In this document: one piece after another, positions 43,861 to 64,000 of the stretch | How positions within the stretch are numbered: position 1 is the first letter of the stretch | How the letters are laid out: the number at the start of each line of letters is the position of its first letter | Source: Candidatus Poriferisocius sp. | Lineage (GTDB): Bacteria > Actinomycetota > Acidimicrobiia > Acidimicrobiales > Bin134 | Direction: 5' to 3' | DNA length: 64,000 nucleotides | Assembly (NCBI GenBank): GCA_965221865.1 | Contig: OZ244918.1 | Coordinates: 1,702,816-1,766,815, forward strand | The notes under the pieces: model-generated | The model's input: the letters and a program-made list of their open reading frames with translations, nothing else | Databases searched by the model: none | Told to the model about the DNA's origin: nothing | Made by a program: the position numbers and the translations under genes

Positions 43861-46800
43861 TTGGTGGTGTTGTGTGTGGGTTTGCGCGTCTTGTTGCTGT
43901 TGTGGGGGGGGGGGGGGGCAGGTTTGGTGAGGTGTCTGAGGTTGGGTGGTTGGTTGCGTAAGGTTTTGCGCGTGCGGGGGTTTGTTGCTGCGGCACTGGC
44001 CGCGGTGTTGTTTGGGGTGTTGTTTGGGGTGTTGGCGCCTGGTTCTGTTGGGGCGCAAACTTCGTCTGTGGTGTCTTCTACTGGTGATAGTGCGGTGGAG
44101 GTAGGCGAGGGTTCCGTGGCTGTTGTTGGGTTTAGTGTGTCGCCTCCGGTGGATTCGGAGGTGTGGCTTCGGTTTTGTTTTGAGAGTTCTTTAGCTGATT
44201 CTAATTTTTCTAATCTGCAGACTCAAATTGGTAATATGAACGTGTCTTTGGATAATAATGGTTGTTTTGATGGCCAGACGGTAACTGTTACCGTGGCCGG
44301 GGCGACGACTCAGTCAGCTACTATTAGGTTTCAGCCTTTGACTAATACGGTGGATGATCTTGATGAGGTTGTTACTGTTACGGTGAGTGAGGATCCTGAT
44401 AATCCGTTGCCTGATGGTGTAAGTATCGATGCTGAGGCTGATTCGGTGTCGAGGAAGATTGTGGATGAAGATCCGACGGTGGTGTCGTTGGCTCGTTCGG
44501 GTTCGGGGGCGATCACCGAAGGCGGGTCAGCGGAGTTAACGGTGAGTTTGGGTCGTGAGCTTGTTGCGGGTGAGATGGTGGGTGTGCCGTTGGCTATTAG
44601 CGGTACGAATGTGACGACCGCGGACTATGATTTGGTGTTGAAGGAAGGACAGGGGCTCAACACTGGCGTTGAGTTGTCGGGTGTGTCAACAACCGAACCG
44701 CATTTGAGTTTTTCTGGTGCTGGCGCGCAGACAGCAACTTTGCTGCTGACAGCGTTGCTAAATAATGATACGGGTGCTGAAACAGTAACAGTCGCGTTGG
44801 GGCCTGATGATGCGACTGCTAACGGTTTTGATCGCCCAGCGTTAGAGACGAACGTAAGTGGCGGTGTTAACCGGTCAAGCACGCAGAATAGTGTGAATGT
44901 GACAGTGAACGATCCTGCTGCGCCTGCTGCGCCTAGGTTATCGTTGGCTCAAGCTGGTGATGGGCAGGTGTATTTGTCGTGGGCTAATCCGGTTAATAGT
45001 TTGATTACTGGTTATGAGTTTCAACGCCGCCCAAGCGGCGGTGAGTGGGGTTCAGCGAAAGGGATTGTTGGTAGTAACGCTAATACCATTACTTATGTGG
45101 TAACCGGTCTCACTAATGACACGGCTTACACTTTCCGGGTGCGCGCTGTGTCTGGTAATACGGATGGGGCGTGGTCGGATGCGTCTGCTGCTGTGACACC
45201 AACGTCTGCTTCTACTGCTAGACCGGCTGTTCCAACGAATTTGGCGGCTGTTGCCGGTGACTCACAAGTAGTGTTAACGTGGGATAACCCGGGTAACACG
45301 GCGATTACTAGTTATGAGGTTCGTCAAAGAACTGGGTCCGCTGATTGGGGTACGTGGGCTGCTATTGCTTCTAGCAGCGCTACTACTGTTACCCATACTG
45401 TTACCGGGTTAACTAACGGTGTGACATATCAGTTTCAAGTACGTGCCGCTACTGGAAACCAAGACGCGTTGAAAAGTTTAACGCCAACAGATTTTTTCGC
45501 TGAAGCTACCCCCAGACCGGCACCACCAACGTTGCTGGTGTCGTCAAGGTCTGCGTTGCGGGTGCCTGAGGGGACGACAACTTTAGGGTATAATATTGTG
45601 TTGTCCCGGGCGTTGACGGCTGATGATCCTGCTGTGTTGGAGTTTGAGATAGCTGTTTCTGGCACTGCTACGCGTGGTACGGATTACTCGTTTTCGTCTG
45701 ATTCTAATTTGAGTGGCACAGGTGTGAGTGTGGTTAACACTGCGGGTAAGGGTAACCCTGTGATTCGTATTGACCGGGCCGCGTTCGGTCTCACTCGAAG
45801 AGGTAGCACTGCTGGGTTGATTATCAACGTGAATCCTGATAGTGATACGGAATCGACTGATGAGACGATTGTACTAACAACACCAGGCACCACCCTCACC
45901 CACATGATTTATGATGCGCCTGCGTCTGTTGAAGCTAAGTTCGCTTTAGCTTCTTCTACTTACGCTGAAGGTTTCGGTCCTTTAACGGTTGTTGTTCAAT
46001 TGAGCGCGTTAACAGGCCGGGATTTGGTGTTCCCCATATTATACCCGTCGGCTACTACAACAGCGGTAGCGAATGTTGATTACACACCGGTTAACAGTTT
46101 CACGGTGAAAGCTAATGGGCAGTTAACTCATTCTTTGGTTATTCCTTATGTTGATAATGATGTTGATGAGCCTAATAAAACGTTGTCTGTGATGTTGGGT
46201 GCTGCGCCTTCGGGTGCTACTAAGGCCACAACAGACACTATGACGGTGACTATTGCTGATAATGATGCAACAACAGTCGCTTTAGCGGTGGCAGATACTA
46301 CGTTGCGTGAAGACACTGACACTCGTTTGACTGTCACTTTGAGTCGTGATTTAGTGGCTGGTGAAATAGTGCGGGTGCCTTTGACTGTAAGCGGAACTGG
46401 TGTGACAGCTGATGATTACACGTTGGAGTTGGCTTCGGATGCGGGGTTGAACACGGGTGTTAGGTTGAACATTGCCTCTCCTTTTAGTGCTGCTTCACCG
46501 CAGGTAGTGTTCACAGGTAGTAGCGGCACCGAACAGGTCGCTACTTTGGTGTTGAGCGCTTCCTATGATGCTACCTCTGAGGGTGCGGAGACGTTGCAGG
46601 TTGGTTTCGGTGCGGTTACAAGCAATTTAGCTCACCCGGATCGGTCTACGTTTACTGCTGCTGGTACTACTGCGGGTGCCCCGGTTGATGTGACAGTGAA
46701 TAATTTGGATGCCCCAGCAGCGCCTACAGGACTCGCCGCGACTGCGGGGGACACGCAAGTGTCGCTGGTTTGGGATGATCCGGGTAATAATTTGATTACT

Positions 46801-58756: not shown

Positions 58757-60900
58757 CGGTGGTTGGGTGGGGTTAGAGTTTTATGTAGGTGTCGGGGTTT
58801 TGGGTGTGTTTTTGCTTTGGGGAACAGATTTTTCGTGTTGTTGATAATTGGGGAACAGATTTTGTTTGTTTGTTTTTATCTGGGTTTTTAGCTTGTTTGT
58901 AAGGGTTTTCTAGTTTTTGTTGTTCCTCGTGGTTTGTTTTCCGTTATCTGTGTGTGTTGGTTGTTTGTTTTTGTAGTTTGTGGGGGTTTGGTGTTTGTTG
59001 GAGGGTAGCTGCTGGGGGTGGTGGGGTTTTGGTGGGGGTGTGGTTGGTTTTTTATTGTTTGTTGATTTTTGTATAGTATATGAATTATGAGTGGTTTGTT
59101 GTTTTGTTTGTTGAGGGGGGGTTTGTGTTTTGATTCTTTGGTGTGCGGGGGGGGGGGCTGGGTTTGTTGTTTGGGGTTGTGTGTGTGGGTTGAGGTGGGG
59201 TTGTGATGTTGGTGGGGGGTTTTTGTTTTAGGGTTGTTTGTGGTTTGGTGGTTGTGTTGGGTTTGTTTGTTTCGGGTTTGGGTGTTGGTGGTGGTGTGGT
59301 TGCGGAGGGGGGTGGTTTTGTGGGGGTGGGTGTGGGGGGTTCTGGTGTTGTTGTGGGGGTGGGTGATGTTGGTGTTGGTGGGGTTTTGGGTGTTGGGGGT
59401 GGGTCTGATTTGTTTTGGGGTTTGGATGGTTTGGAGGGTTTGGAGGGTGTTGGGGGTGGTGTTGGTGTGGTTGGGGGTCGTGTGGGTGGTGGGTTGTTGT
59501 TTGGTGGGGATGGTTTTTTGGATTTGGGTGTGGGTGTGGGTGGGGGTGGGGGTTTTGGTTTTGAGGGGTGTGGGTCTGGGGAATCTGGTGTGGTTGAGGG
59601 TGTTGTTGAGGAGCTTATGTCAGATACTGTTGTGGCGGATAGTGGGTGTGGGTGGTCTGTTGGTTTGTGGGTGAAGCGGGTTGGTGGGGTTGTTGGTGGG
59701 TCTGTGTTGTTGGGGTCTTTGGAGGGTGGGGATTCTTTGTTGTTGGAGGGTGTTGGGGGTCGTGTGGGTGTGGGGCGGTTGGGTGGTGTGGTTCGTAGTT
59801 TTGGGTTTGGTACGCCGTTGGGTGAGTGGGTTTATTTGGTGTTTGTGGGGTCGTCGGGTGGTGTGGGTTTGTTTGTGGATGGGGTGTTGGTGGGTTGGGT
59901 TGGTGGGGGTGTTGGGTTGTCTTTGGGTGTTTTGGGTGGTGGTGTTGGTGGTGTTGGGGGTGTGAGGGCTGTTTTGGATGATTTGCGGGTGTGGGGTCGT
60001 GTGTTGTCTGCGGGTGAGGTGGCGGGGGTGTTTGGGGGGTTTGAGCCGTTGTTGGTGCCTGGTGTTGTTGAGGGTTTGGTTGGGGCTGATGTTGGTGTTG
60101 GGAGTGTTGGGTTGGGGTGGTTAGCGCCTGTTGGTGGTGGTGGGGTTGAGGGGTTTGAGGTGCGTTGGCGTGAGGAGGGTTCGGGTGTGTGGTTGGGTGA
60201 GGGTGTGGTTGAGGTGTCGGCTCAGGGGAAGGGGGAAGAGGGGTATGGTTTTGTGGCCGATGGGTTGGGTGTTGGGGTGGCATATGAGTTTTGGGTGCGT
60301 GCTGTTAATGGTGTGGGTGGTGGTGGTTGGGTTTCTGTTCGGTTTGTTGCGGGTGTTTCGGGGGTGGCTGATGTTGTGAGCGGGTTGAGGGTGTCTTCTG
60401 AGCCGGGTGGGTTTAGGGTTTCGTGGGGTAGGCCTGTTGATGCGGGTGGTTTTGATGTGTCGGGGTTTGAGGTGCGTTACCGGCGTGGTGGTGGTGGTGG
60501 TTGGGTGTCTGAGTTTGTGGGTGACACAGAGCGGGGGTTGGTGGTGGATGGTTTGGTTGTTGGTGGTGCCTATGAGGTGCAGGTGCGGGTTTTGACTGGG
60601 TTTGGTGCGGGTTTGTGGGTGTCTGGGAGGGTTGTTGTGGGTCGTGAAGGTGTTCCGGGTGTTCCGGGTGGGTTGTTGGTTGATGTTGGGGCAGATGGGG
60701 TGGTGTTGTTGTGGGATGCGCCTGTTAGTGATGGTGGTGTTGGGGTTGATGGTTATGAGGTTCGGTATAGGCGGGGCGGGTTTTGGTCTGAGCCTGTTGG
60801 TTTAGAGTCTTGGGTGCGGGGTTATGAGTTTTCGGGTTTGGTGCGTGGTGTGGATCATGTGTTGTTGGTGCGGGCTATAAATGAGCGTGGGCCGGGTTCT
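58757..60900 (+). other. G+T-saturated (A/C-depleted) tract
   Basis: For example, 59281-59400 has 4 A/C in 120 nt. The tract covers 450 nt of non-coding DNA and the first 1.7 kb of giant gene 2. Confidence 0.9.
59147..59157 (+). repeat. Homopolymeric G11 tract 49 nt upstream of the giant gene 2 ATG (plus G7 at 59115-59121)
   Basis: Counted directly. Confidence 0.95.
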
Positions 60901-63900
60901 TGGGCTGGTTTAGAGGTAGGTTTTGGTGTTTCATCTAAACAAGCGTTCACGGTGCCTAGGTTGGTTGGTTGGTTGCCTGGTGATGGGGTGTTCACAGTTG
61001 TTAGGGGTTCACGTGTTGTGATTACGGGTGGTGATACAGCTAGGAGTTGGTCTGAGGATTTCATGTCCACAGTATTAGAAAACGAAGAGGTGGTAGCCGA
61101 TGTTGACAGTGTTTTAGGTGTGAATGTGTTGCAAGCACATTCACAGGTTGTGGGTGTTGCTACTGCTGCGCGTAGGGTTTTACGGGAGGTAGCAGAAAAG
61201 ATAGCTGCCGATTTGGAAGCTGTCACAGGTTTTGATGTGCCTGTGGTGGTGGTTGATGATATTCAAAGTGCGCGTGCTGGTGACATTGTGTTGGATGTAG
61301 CTGATAGTTCGGTTGAAGGGTTGGGGGTGGAAGGTTACACATTGTTTGTGGGTGATGTGGTAAGGATTGTTGGGAATACTTCTACTGGCGTGTTTTGGGG
61401 GTCGAGGTCTTTGCTGCAATTGTTAGCAGCATCTGAAACCGGTTTGGTGGTACCAGCAGGTTCGGTGCGTGATATTCCTTCAGCGGTTAGCGCTGTGAGA
61501 TCTTTGCATTTAGATAAAGCAGCCAGGTTTTACAGTCCAACACATTTACAACAGTTGATCGGGTTGTTGTCTTGGCACAAACTAAACGTGTTACACCTTG
61601 ATTTCACTTTCGCTAATGGTAGATACGATCAAGCGGTTTGGCTTTCGGATTTAGAAAACTTCGCTCGCGACCATCATGTGGCAGTAATCGTTAGCGAACC
61701 GCTTGCCGACACTACACCACCCGCAGAACAAGCAGACAGGCTAGTTGCTGAAAGTTTTGTTAGCAGCGGTGTGGTTGGGAGTGTTGTTGGTGACGGTGAT
61801 GCAGGGTTAGTTGAGAGCACAGTCACACAAGACCGTCAACAATTAGCTAACACTGTGTCTGGTGTGAGCGCGGATCGTTGGGTGAGGGGACACCGTTTTG
61901 TTTTAGGACGTCAACTTGTGTTACCTGATTTAGCGGCTATTCACAGTCTGGCTAGCAAACTGAATGGGCCCGGTGAGGTGGGTGCTGGACTGTTCGTGGG
62001 CGGCCCGTTAGCTTTAGCAGCCACCGACGGGTTCATCAACTATCATTTAGGTTCGTCTTTAGCAGTGCTCGGTGACCGGTTATGGAACGAGCAGGCATCT
62101 AACTGGACAGTCGACGAGTTCCTAACAGCTAAAAACATTATCGGTTCACCGCTCACAACAAAAACCGTTCACAACTCTGAACAACATCGCGGGCTCATAC
62201 ACCACTGGAGTTTCAACAATGTGAAATATTATCAAACCTCTGAAAACACAGCAGATAAGACAAGCTATTTACTAATACCCGATCATACGGGCAGAGCTGA
62301 CGGATATGCGATCGGTGACCCACAAAAATTTCCTCGGCTAAACGCTGACAGCCGTCTTTTAGGTCAAAGCATAGAATTCGGGCACAGCGAACAAGTCCTA
62401 AACCAAGACGGCATAGAACTAGGCGCCACAGACTTACCAGTACCATGGACCCTGTCAGCGTGGGTGAAACGAACCGGCAACCATCCCGGAGCGACACTAC
62501 TAAACTCAATTAACGGGGCGATACGCCTACAACAACACAACAAACCCGTAATAGGCCTCCTAGACCGCACAAACACACCATACACATACCACAACTTTGA
62601 CTACACCCTGCCACTAAACAAATGGGTACACCTAACACTCATCGCCACCCAACAAGGCACAGTACTATACGCTGATAGCCGTCTTGTCGGCTCAGTGCCC
62701 AAGTCGATTTCGTTGCCGCTACAACAAATCGGGTTTGAAAACCTCATCGGCCTAAAAGCCAAAATAGATGATATCAAAATATGGGGGCAACCACTTGTTT
62801 CTGCTGTCAACCAAGTTATATCCACCCCAACAACACCCATTGATCAACCCATAGTGCCCGAGCTGGTTGCTACACCACCATTAGAACCCGGTTTAGTAGC
62901 AGTGTCGCTGGATGTGAACAACTCGGGCACAGTCACAGAGGGTGGCACGTTGACGGTCACTGCGACATTAGCGGCAGCGGCCGCAGCGAACGTTACGATT
63001 CCAGTGCGCGTTGCCTCCGGTGGCACAGCAGGAGCTGGTGATTACACACTTTCTGCTTCGGGGAACATTACTATTAGCAGCGGTTCCACATCAGGCACTT
63101 TGACGTTTAATGCTACCGATGACAGTATTGATGAAAACAATGAGACGCTAACATTAGAGTTCGGTACGCTACCTGCCGGTTATCGTGCTGGCAGCCCGTC
63201 AAGTGTGAACATCACCATAACAGACAACGACACAGCGGGTGTGACCATCACCGAGACCGGTGACAGCACATCGGTAGCAGAAAACGCTGGTACTGACACT
63301 TACACCGTCGTGTTAGACACCCAGCCAACCCATGATGTGTCGGTGGCGGTCACATCAACAGGGCCTGTGGCGTTTGATGGACCAGATGATGCGACCGCGT
63401 ACACCACAAGTGAAACATTAACGTTCACACCAACTAACTGGGCGACAGCGCAGACGATCACAGTGCAAGGCCAAAACGATGATGTGGACAACACTGGCGG
63501 GTCGCGTAGCGCGACACTCTCTCATGATGTGTCGTCCAGCGACACGGCTTATAACGCTATAGCTGACCAAGATGTCACCGTAACGGTGACCGATGATGAT
63601 GCGACGCCTGAGATTGATTTAAGTGTGAACCCGGCAACGGTGGCAGAAGATGCTGGCGCGACCACGGTGACAGTTACCGCCACGGTTGATGACGCGACCA
63701 TCAGATTTGACGCGGCGAAAACGGTAGCAGTGTCGGTTACAGGGTCGGGTGAGGCTAACCGGGTCGGGTTCACAGCGGTCAACAACTTCAACATTACTAT
63801 CGCTGCTGGCCAACCGTCGGGGAGTAACACGTTCACGCTCACACCAGATGATGACAGCACTGATGAGACCGACGAGACAATCACCATATCGGGCACTTCA

Positions 63901-64000
63901 ACTGGGCTAACCATCAACCCGGCGACGTTGACCCTCACCGACGATGATGCTCTTGCACTTGTTAGCATGCCTGTCACGTTGGGGGTCAACAACTCGGGCA
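59206..64000 (+). CDS. Giant surface protein 2 (partial, continues past the window)
   Basis: Domain order is TM/signal, LamG, 3x FN3, GH20-like, LamG, Calx-beta-like repeats. Frame 1 is open from the stop at 59191-59193 to the window end, checked by hand translation of several segments. It is absent from the ORF track because no stop is reached. Recognisable landmarks include W.VGLWVKR...LFVDG...DDLRVWGR.LSAGEV (LamG_3), FRVSWGRPVDAGGFDVSGFEVRYR (FN3), EGYTLFV...GVFWGSRSLLQLL...D.P....R.LHLD.AR.FYS...L..LI.LLS.HKLNVLHLDF (GH20-like), and ..TITDNDTAGV.. (Calx-beta-like). Confidence 0.85.
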   Translation, partial: MLVGGFCFRVVCGLVVVLGLFVSGLGVGGGVVAEGGGFVGVGVGGSGVVVGVGDVGVGGVLGVGGGSDLFWGLDGLEGLEGVGGGVGVVGGRVGGGLLFGGDGFLDLGVGVGGGGGFGFEGCGSGESGVVEGVVEELMSDTVVADSGCGWSVGLWVKRVGGVVGGSVLLGSLEGGDSLLLEGVGGRVGVGRLGGVVRSFGFGTPLGEWVYLVFVGSSGGVGLFVDGVLVGWVGGGVGLSLGVLGGGVGGVGGVRAVLDDLRVWGRVLSAGEVAGVFGGFEPLLVPGVVEGLVGADVGVGSVGLGWLAPVGGGGVEGFEVRWREEGSGVWLGEGVVEVSAQGKGEEGYGFVADGLGVGVAYEFWVRAVNGVGGGGWVSVRFVAGVSGVADVVSGLRVSSEPGGFRVSWGRPVDAGGFDVSGFEVRYRRGGGGGWVSEFVGDTERGLVVDGLVVGGAYEVQVRVLTGFGAGLWVSGRVVVGREGVPGVPGGLLVDVGADGVVLLWDAPVSDGGVGVDGYEVRYRRGGFWSEPVGLESWVRGYEFSGLVRGVDHVLLVRAINERGPGSWAGLEVGFGVSSKQAFTVPRLVGWLPGDGVFTVVRGSRVVITGGDTARSWSEDFMSTVLENEEVVADVDSVLGVNVLQAHSQVVGVATAARRVLREVAEKIAADLEAVTGFDVPVVVVDDIQSARAGDIVLDVADSSVEGLGVEGYTLFVGDVVRIVGNTSTGVFWGSRSLLQLLAASETGLVVPAGSVRDIPSAVSAVRSLHLDKAARFYSPTHLQQLIGLLSWHKLNVLHLDFTFANGRYDQAVWLSDLENFARDHHVAVIVSEPLADTTPPAEQADRLVAESFVSSGVVGSVVGDGDAGLVESTVTQDRQQLANTVSGVSADRWVRGHRFVLGRQLVLPDLAAIHSLASKLNGPGEVGAGLFVGGPLALAATDGFINYHLGSSLAVLGDRLWNEQASNWTVDEFLTAKNIIGSPLTTKTVHNSEQHRGLIHHWSFNNVKYYQTSENTADKTSYLLIPDHTGRADGYAIGDPQKFPRLNADSRLLGQSIEFGHSEQVLNQDGIELGATDLPVPWTLSAWVKRTGNHPGATLLNSINGAIRLQQHNKPVIGLLDRTNTPYTYHNFDYTLPLNKWVHLTLIATQQGTVLYADSRLVGSVPKSISLPLQQIGFENLIGLKAKIDDIKIWGQPLVSAVNQVISTPTTPIDQPIVPELVATPPLEPGLVAVSLDVNNSGTVTEGGTLTVTATLAAAAAANVTIPVRVASGGTAGAGDYTLSASGNITISSGSTSGTLTFNATDDSIDENNETLTLEFGTLPAGYRAGSPSSVNITITDNDTAGVTITETGDSTSVAENAGTDTYTVVLDTQPTHDVSVAVTSTGPVAFDGPDDATAYTTSETLTFTPTNWATAQTITVQGQNDDVDNTGGSRSATLSHDVSSSDTAYNAIADQDVTVTVTDDDATPEIDLSVNPATVAEDAGATTVTVTATVDDATIRFDAAKTVAVSVTGSGEANRVGFTAVNNFNITIAAGQPSGSNTFTLTPDDDSTDETDETITISGTSTGLTINPATLTLTDDDALALVSMPVTLGVNNSG

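Follow-up and report, generated by a model that had tools for sequence, protein, structure and literature searches.

What does an unbroken run of eleven G residues do in front of a gene more than 32 kb long? The question arises at giant gene 2 of Candidatus Poriferisocius sp., an uncultured sponge symbiont whose genome is one contig of 2.93 Mb, its closest named relatives being metagenome-assembled genomes (MAGs) labelled Acidimicrobiia and Candidatus Poriferisodalis. The window analysed is a 64,000-nt stretch of that contig (G000:C1:1702816-1766815), and the features described below lie on its plus strand. Giant gene 2 encodes 10,768 amino acids (aa) at contig positions 1762018-1794324, and its 5′ part occupies window positions 59206-64000. 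The product contains fn3, GH20b, Laminin_G_3 and Calx-beta domains and begins with MLVGGFCFRVVCGLVVVLGLFV, which by eye resembles a signal peptide. The G11 homopolymer (59147-59157), with 48 nt between its end and ATG 59206, probably works as a switch of expression, of the familiar type called a homopolymer contingency locus. That it acts through an upstream reading frame overlapping the start of giant gene 2 is plausible and only partly supported.

The G11 run before giant gene 2 is not a chance run. A whole-genome census gave a bimodal distribution of G/C runs (42 of 7 nt, 5 of 8 nt and 53 of 9–23 nt) that exceeds the lengths predicted from composition, and the longest A/T run was 10 nt. A G/C run of 9 nt or longer was assigned to a gene when it lay between −250 and +200 of the first start of an open reading frame (ORF). 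Such runs mark 12 of the 18 ORFs of at least 1,500 aa versus 26 of 2,087 smaller ones (odds ratio 159, p 3e-18). No ORF of 2,600 aa or more lacks one: the 12 in this size class (2,666 to 17,823 aa) have runs of 11–20 nt. In these 12 giant genes the distance from the end of the tract to the probable start is 3 to 133 nt (24–54 nt in nine of them), the coding strand carries poly-G in eight and poly-C in four, and every product begins with a signal peptide ending in an AQT-like motif. Selection has strongly favoured long G/C runs at the 5′ ends of giant genes; taken together, these loci resemble a genome-wide "phasome" of giant secreted proteins. The first-pass annotation had drawn a parallel between giant gene 2 and giant gene 1, whose G15 run (43904-43918) has a similar spacing to its start; both genes do have a long G run some 48 nt 5′ of the start, each run followed by the sequence c[a/t]gg(g)tttg, and the design proved to be family-wide. 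Examples of giant-gene loci with a 5′ G/C run are found at G000:C1 454397-507868, 520914-559553 and 2260580-2294173.

The assembled sequences show that the length of the tract region differs among copies that are otherwise identical. Two paralogues of giant gene 2, 10,457 and 9,487 aa long, match it at about 97% identity over their first 3.8 and 7.4 kb, and around the start the three are identical save at simple repeats. Relative to the G11 reference copy in the window, the 10,457-aa paralogue has G13, one additional unit in the short GT repeat immediately 5′ of the tract (59141-59145), and G5 in place of the G3 run at 59187-59189. The 9,487-aa paralogue has G18 and the same G5, its homology beginning about 15 nt 5′ of the tract. 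Strain contigs with an orthologous leader were found by exact-protein look-ups of upstream neighbours, and the between-strain leader comparison covers giant gene 2 and giant gene 1. At giant gene 2, a 49x contig (L019/L023) has G11 with one extra GT unit, so that G11 was seen again in an independent assembly, and a 2x contig (L022) has G10 and no other repeat difference, weak evidence of length change at that coverage. At giant gene 1, the 49x strain L023 has G18 where the window has G15, and G8 where the window has G9 in a run further upstream. Among assembled paralogues and strains, length thus varies in the tract region but not in G7 (59115-59121), which is unchanged in the four copies that carry it.

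Several further observations concern these copies. The 5′ module common to G000:C1:1761500-1794400 and to 2027000-2058900 and 1800500-1829600 extends over 3.8–7.4 kb at about 97% identity, locally 100% at the start. Because homology to one paralogue starts about 15 nt before the poly-G and the identity of the module is high, we suggest that tract and 5′ module move as a unit by gene conversion. Sequence from 59034 onward is common to the paralogues and would confound short reads. The contig representing L019/L023 (ENA ERZ25072448 ctg23979) encodes a giant gene 2 of 11,004 rather than 10,768 aa and a giant gene 1 of 2,639 rather than 2,666 aa, and internal repeat number therefore appears to vary between strains as well. 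Exact-protein look-ups with the 495-aa upstream neighbour of giant gene 2 and with five paralogue neighbours gave no result, and exact 28-mer scans around the giant gene 2 start found no match in metagenome contigs or genome contigs.

A related species shows a comparable arrangement. In G056, a complete genome of a related Ca. Poriferisodalis species, there are 26 runs of at least 12 nt, many of them immediately 5′ of long ORFs with AQT-type signal peptides, and the orthologue of giant gene 1 keeps two tracts (G14 and G15) within diverged flanks of normal composition. Runs of at least 12 nt occur in 36 of 40 genomes of the genus, a count that is an upper bound because some short-read MAGs contain artefact-like G/C runs adjoining N gaps; we therefore rejected it as a clean figure. 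In one such sequence, L002 (G005:C44, 995-1183), a G18 abuts a C16 and a C50 follows an N gap 5′ of a giant-gene start rich in G and T; short-read assembly is the probable source of these runs, though they lie at the same kind of site. The leader of giant gene 2 itself was found only in its own genome in a DNA search of 40 relatives, and a search of related loci yielded no orthologue with the giant gene 2 N-terminus. A homologue search with the first 250 residues likewise gave nothing, low-complexity words having swamped the candidate list. As to repair, a domain search of the genome did not find MutS and did find NucS, and NucS-based repair leaves indels uncorrected (PMC7015689). Tract position, excess, cross-species conservation, length differences and repair background together make it likely that G11 is a slippage-prone contingency tract controlling a giant surface protein.

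How might a tract at this position act? The leader is very poor in A and C, with 6 A and 3 C residues in 120 nt, and belongs to 2.1 kb of sequence in which GC skew reaches 0.88. Its sole A-rich island holds two −10-like hexamers of the form TAnnnT, TATAGT (59072-59077) and TAGTAT (59074-59079), making it a candidate promoter for a leaderless or near-leaderless transcript; the only other TAnnnT in the last 150 nt before the start is TATTGT at 59053, and none occurs 3′ of G11. An upstream frame (59087-59206) opens at ATG 59087, runs for 39 sense codons across G7 and G11, and ends at TGA 59204-59206, whose last base is the first of ATG 59206; these coordinates, and those of the two G runs, are as the first-pass annotation gave them. 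Between tract and start lies TGAGGTG (59191-59197), in which a TGA closes the main frame 12 nt before GTG 59203 and overlaps a Shine-Dalgarno-like GAGG (59192-59195), 7 to 10 nt 5′ of GTG 59203 and ATG 59206. The upstream TGA overlaps both candidate starts in GTGATG (59203-59208), and with GTG 59203 as the alternative start the overlap with the upstream frame becomes GTGA. The third frame is closed by TAG 59229-59231, 23 nt past the main ATG. All three frames thus close between −15 and +23 relative to the main start. The four A residues of 59091-59206 all fall within TGA triplets (59112, 59131, 59191 and 59204), with all three frames represented. Since TG makes up 0.22 of the dinucleotides in this interval, such a coincidence has a chance probability of about 0.002; A is preceded by TG in 1 of 25 residual A's of the upstream spacer and in 38% of cases in coding sequence. 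Positions 59147-59162, comprising G11, CT and GGG, are also the exact minimum for a three-layer G-quadruplex with loops of 1, 1 and 2 nt.

The mechanism we favour would work as follows. G11 with the neighbouring short GT and G runs would form a repeat hypermutable by strand slippage, placed in the 5′ leader of a giant gene for a secreted, adhesin-like protein; it would belong to a genome-wide set of contingency loci through which members of the symbiont population would come to differ in expression of their giant surface proteins. Transcription would begin at the A-rich island TATAGT/TAGTAT, ATG 59087 would serve as a leaderless or near-leaderless start, and ribosomes would translate across the tract. 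Where they stop would then depend on how long the tract region is, modulo 3: at TGA 59191 (−15), at GTGATG on the start itself, or at TAG 59229 (+23). A stop at GTGATG would couple the upstream frame to giant gene 2, ribosomes stopping at TAG 59229 would pass over the main start, and the stop position would in this way raise or lower initiation on the 32-kb ORF. We lean, cautiously, towards this reading as a whole, a hypermutable leader repeat belonging to a genome-wide contingency set with its length modulo 3 choosing the upstream-frame stop, and we offer the upstream-frame step as a hypothesis. A stricter version, in which slippage in G11 and the GT repeat forms a three-position translational switch through a leaderless upstream ORF common to the giant adhesin gene set, appears unlikely.

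Leaderless initiation is common in this genome, because TAnnnT is strongly enriched 6–9 nt before first starts: over the whole genome, 153, 74, 55 and 68 ORF first starts have the hexamer at gaps of 6, 7, 8 and 9 nt, versus about 25–30 at other gaps, and TAnnnT at leaderless spacing precedes 14.6% of first starts versus 1.5% of internal ATG/GTG codons. Leaderless initiation is likewise common in mycobacteria (PMC4633059). ATG 59087 lies 7 nt after TAGTAT and 9 nt after TATAGT, both gaps being within the enriched range; the signal is absent from the 9,487-aa paralogue. We examined 24 tract loci, 12 from this genome and 12 from G056, for TAnnnT-N6-8-ATG/GTG within 150 nt upstream with a frame reaching the tract. 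The pattern was present at 13 of the 24, compared with 3.7 ± 1.7 in dinucleotide shuffles (maximum 11 in 300) and 6.3% of ordinary genes. The 3,446-aa gene, for instance, has a perfect TATAAT-6 nt-ATG; giant gene 1, a near-identical paralogue, has a different and unrelated upstream region. The 10,457-aa paralogue keeps the TGATG end through three separate +2 changes, +6 in total.

A number of results weigh against the upstream frame as the working part. The 24 tract loci contain paralogue families, which reduces the 13 positives to about eight independent promoter families, and the enrichment is absent from a third species (0 of 27). A 39-codon open frame alone is not beyond chance in A-poor DNA, as the first-pass annotation had rightly cautioned: 15 of 69 stop-free runs in the A/C-depleted region 58757-60900 reach at least 40 codons. 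That region begins about 450 nt upstream, and transcription may accordingly start further up as well, which would make ATG 59087 an internal codon with no Shine-Dalgarno sequence. The TGATG overlap occurs in only two of five leader copies, those of the window and the 10,457-aa paralogue; in the other three, strain contigs L019 and L022 and the 9,487-aa paralogue, the frame ends at TAG +23. The first-pass annotation had itself named lack of conservation alongside the giant gene as something that would undermine the frame. The 9,487-aa paralogue matches only the tract and sequence 3′ of it, and lacks ATG 59087; its other upstream ATG has no −10 signature and opens a 52-codon frame ending at the same TAG. 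Four giant genes carry poly-C rather than poly-G on the coding strand, and the tract serves as a promoter spacer in one gene of this genome as well as in relatives. Long-read assemblies are prone to error in homopolymer length, most so at 2x coverage, and transcriptional slippage on an 11-nt run could blur any frame effect. The peptide sequence of the upstream frame is not conserved among copies. Translational coupling through TGATG, the role first suggested for the overlap, is thus not established, given its presence in two of five copies, the paralogue without the ATG, the poly-C genes and the spacer-type relatives. Fusion of the frame to the giant ORF at another tract length was discarded, because TGA 59191 closes the main frame. 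The cysteine-richness of its peptide was rejected as a meaningful signal, TGT and TGC codons being expected in G+T-only sequence.

Comparison with other tract loci showed three settings, of which giant gene 2 belongs to the last, the leader class. In promoter-spacer loci the run lies between −35 and −10 hexamers, as in paralogues of G008, a member of the same genus (TTGACC-[G15-19]-c-GATAAT/GATGAT/GATACT-6 nt-ATG, with spacers of 16, 16, 17 and 20 nt), and in the 12,879-aa gene of this genome (TTGACT-[C11]-5 nt-TAGCTT). In-ORF loci include the 3,228-aa gene and G056 L051, which are in frame through the tract from an upstream leaderless-type start, and the 4,750-aa gene (ATG-t-[C16], in frame); G056 L029, a paralogue of L051, is out of frame at the tract. 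The leader class is made up of the giant gene 2 family together with the 17,823-aa and 11,197-aa genes; in it a stop codon separates tract and start in the main frame, and neither classic mechanism therefore applies directly to giant gene 2: no −35/−10 pair flanks its tract in the manner of porA or tp0126, and TGA 59191-59193 stands between tract and start, in contrast to switches of the pilC or opa type. What the locus does have is an upstream-ORF stop overlapping the main start, at GTGATG 59203-59208, and a tract in the leader of a gene for a signal-peptide-bearing fn3/LamG/Calx-beta protein, the usual setting of a contingency locus. In G008, which has 79 runs of at least 13 nt, the loci L055, L056, L057, L075, L076 and L077 share the form TTGACC-[G13-19]-c-GATAAT-like hexamer-6 nt-ATG, some of them in tandem about 5.5 kb apart; there the poly-G forms the entire −35/−10 spacer of a leaderless promoter, with spacers of 16–20 nt among copies.

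The poly-C members and the spacer-type relatives indicate that this class of tract acts at the DNA level at least sometimes, and it is possible, if somewhat unlikely, that the tract of giant gene 2 is a phase-variable element working on transcription or nucleic-acid structure and that its upstream frame is an accident of A-poor sequence. Such an element could alter promoter geometry or the phasing of a regulator, or could form a G-quadruplex or R-loop, on the G-rich non-template strand or the RNA, near the start of the 32-kb unit. The −35/−10 spacers of G008 and of the 12,879-aa gene are precedents for promoter geometry, the run occurs on either strand (G in eight giant genes, C in four), all that the three paralogues have in common is the tract and about 40 nt after it, and open frames are expected by chance in such a leader. 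The spacer model nevertheless fails for giant gene 2, because no −35-like hexamer abuts the tract and no TAnnnT follows it, the sequence from the tract to 59193 containing no A outside the TGA that ends there. As for structure, ViennaRNA with G-quadruplex terms predicts the three-layer quadruplex (G11 + CU + GGG) only with at least 11 G residues, the predicted minimum free energy falling from −16.5 kcal/mol at G10 to −33.8 at G11; this route is closed to the transcripts of the four poly-C genes. An action on transcription or structure also leaves unexplained the A-rich island and the confinement of the remaining A's to TGA.

A tract with no regulatory role at all we regard as improbable. The run would then be a neutral by-product of strand-biased loss of A and C, for example a purine-rich run turned to G's, spread among paralogues by gene conversion, and its length differences would be drift or assembly error. 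The strong GC skew (up to 0.88 over 2.1 kb), the 97–100% identity of the block in the three paralogues, the origin of G10 in a 2x contig and the artefact-like runs beside N gaps in short-read MAGs of the genus all fit such a history. It does not account for tracts of 11–20 nt before 12 of 12 giant genes, those of normal composition and those with poly-C included, nor for their retention at the giant gene 1 orthologue in another species despite diverged flanks. The gap at 8 nt in the run-length distribution and the recurrence of G11 in the independent 49x assembly tell against it as well.

A short repeat was seen elsewhere in the depleted region. The exact 14-mer GGGGAACAGATTTT occurs at 58819-58832 and 58850-58863, 31 nt apart, with no further exact copy genome-wide, and a one-mismatch copy lies 1.1 kb 5′ of the 10,457-aa paralogue. 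The copies are islands containing A and C that were retained in the depleted region, possibly as a binding site; as a general motif the repeat was rejected, its exact form occurring only twice in the genome, both times in the window. Comparison of the leader with Rfam gave no match, and a scan of the leader for sigma-70 promoters and terminators found none.

Homopolymer switches of surface-protein genes are known in several bacteria. Intragenic frameshift switches, in which the repeat lies between start codon and signal peptide, include the poly-G of Neisseria pilC, the CTCTT repeat of opa and the poly-G phasome of Campylobacter jejuni. The 3,228-aa gene, the 4,750-aa gene and G056 L051 look like switches of this type; giant gene 2 differs, since TGA 59191 closes the main frame and the tract cannot belong to the giant ORF. 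In Treponema pallidum, tprE, G, J, F, I and L and tp0126 have upstream poly-G tracts whose length varies within and between strains and sets expression, some in the −35/−10 spacer and others adjoining the transcription start site (PMC7864442). Giant gene 2 resembles the tpr genes in having poly-G just 5′ of paralogous surface-protein genes. The T. pallidum tracts are 7–12 nt long and lie at the transcription start site or 4 nt before it (PMC7864442), whereas those described here are 11–20 nt long, and that of giant gene 2 lies 48 nt before the start codon with no promoter signal after it. The homopolymers of Neisseria meningitidis porA (poly-G) and opc (poly-C) set the −35/−10 distance (summarised in PMC7864442), an architecture matched by G008 and the 12,879-aa gene but not by giant gene 2.

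The closest analogue in tract number and base bias is Cutibacterium (Propionibacterium) acnes, an actinobacterium without MutS/L that has about 54 variable tracts, nearly all G/C, in intergenic positions or at gene 5′ ends, notably those of surface adhesins (PMC4746626). Its targets are adhesins of ordinary size, whereas here every gene of 2,600–17,823 aa is marked. Tract variation in C. acnes followed clades, which suggests slow change (PMC4746626). For the candidate upstream frame, the nearest parallel is the leaderless short ORF at the head of mycobacterial operons, with a 5′ AUG at the transcription start site, whose translation controls downstream expression (PMC4633059; bioRxiv 10.1101/834739). 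Both have an actinobacterial host and a short frame, absent from annotation, that precedes the main gene, but the mycobacterial ORFs sense amino-acid supply and contain no hypermutable repeat, while here slippage would reset the frame.

What sets this system apart is that, in an uncultured sponge symbiont, no giant gene lacks a tract. The sponge host feeds on bacteria, and its symbionts must either be recognised or escape being eaten; giant secreted repeat proteins are prime candidates for the interface between the two. At a practical level, the runs and shared 5′ modules will break assemblies and can shift the annotated start coordinates of giant genes. If the upstream-frame mechanism is true, translational coupling would be an added route by which simple repeats switch genes, phase variation proceeding through termination and reinitiation and not through promoter spacing or in-gene frameshift, with the same logic serving the set of giant adhesins. 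Runs at all 12 giant genes, in a genome without indel repair, suggest by analogy that a stochastic expression repertoire of the kind found in pathogens such as Neisseria, Campylobacter, Treponema and C. acnes may also operate here, in an uncultured mutualist.

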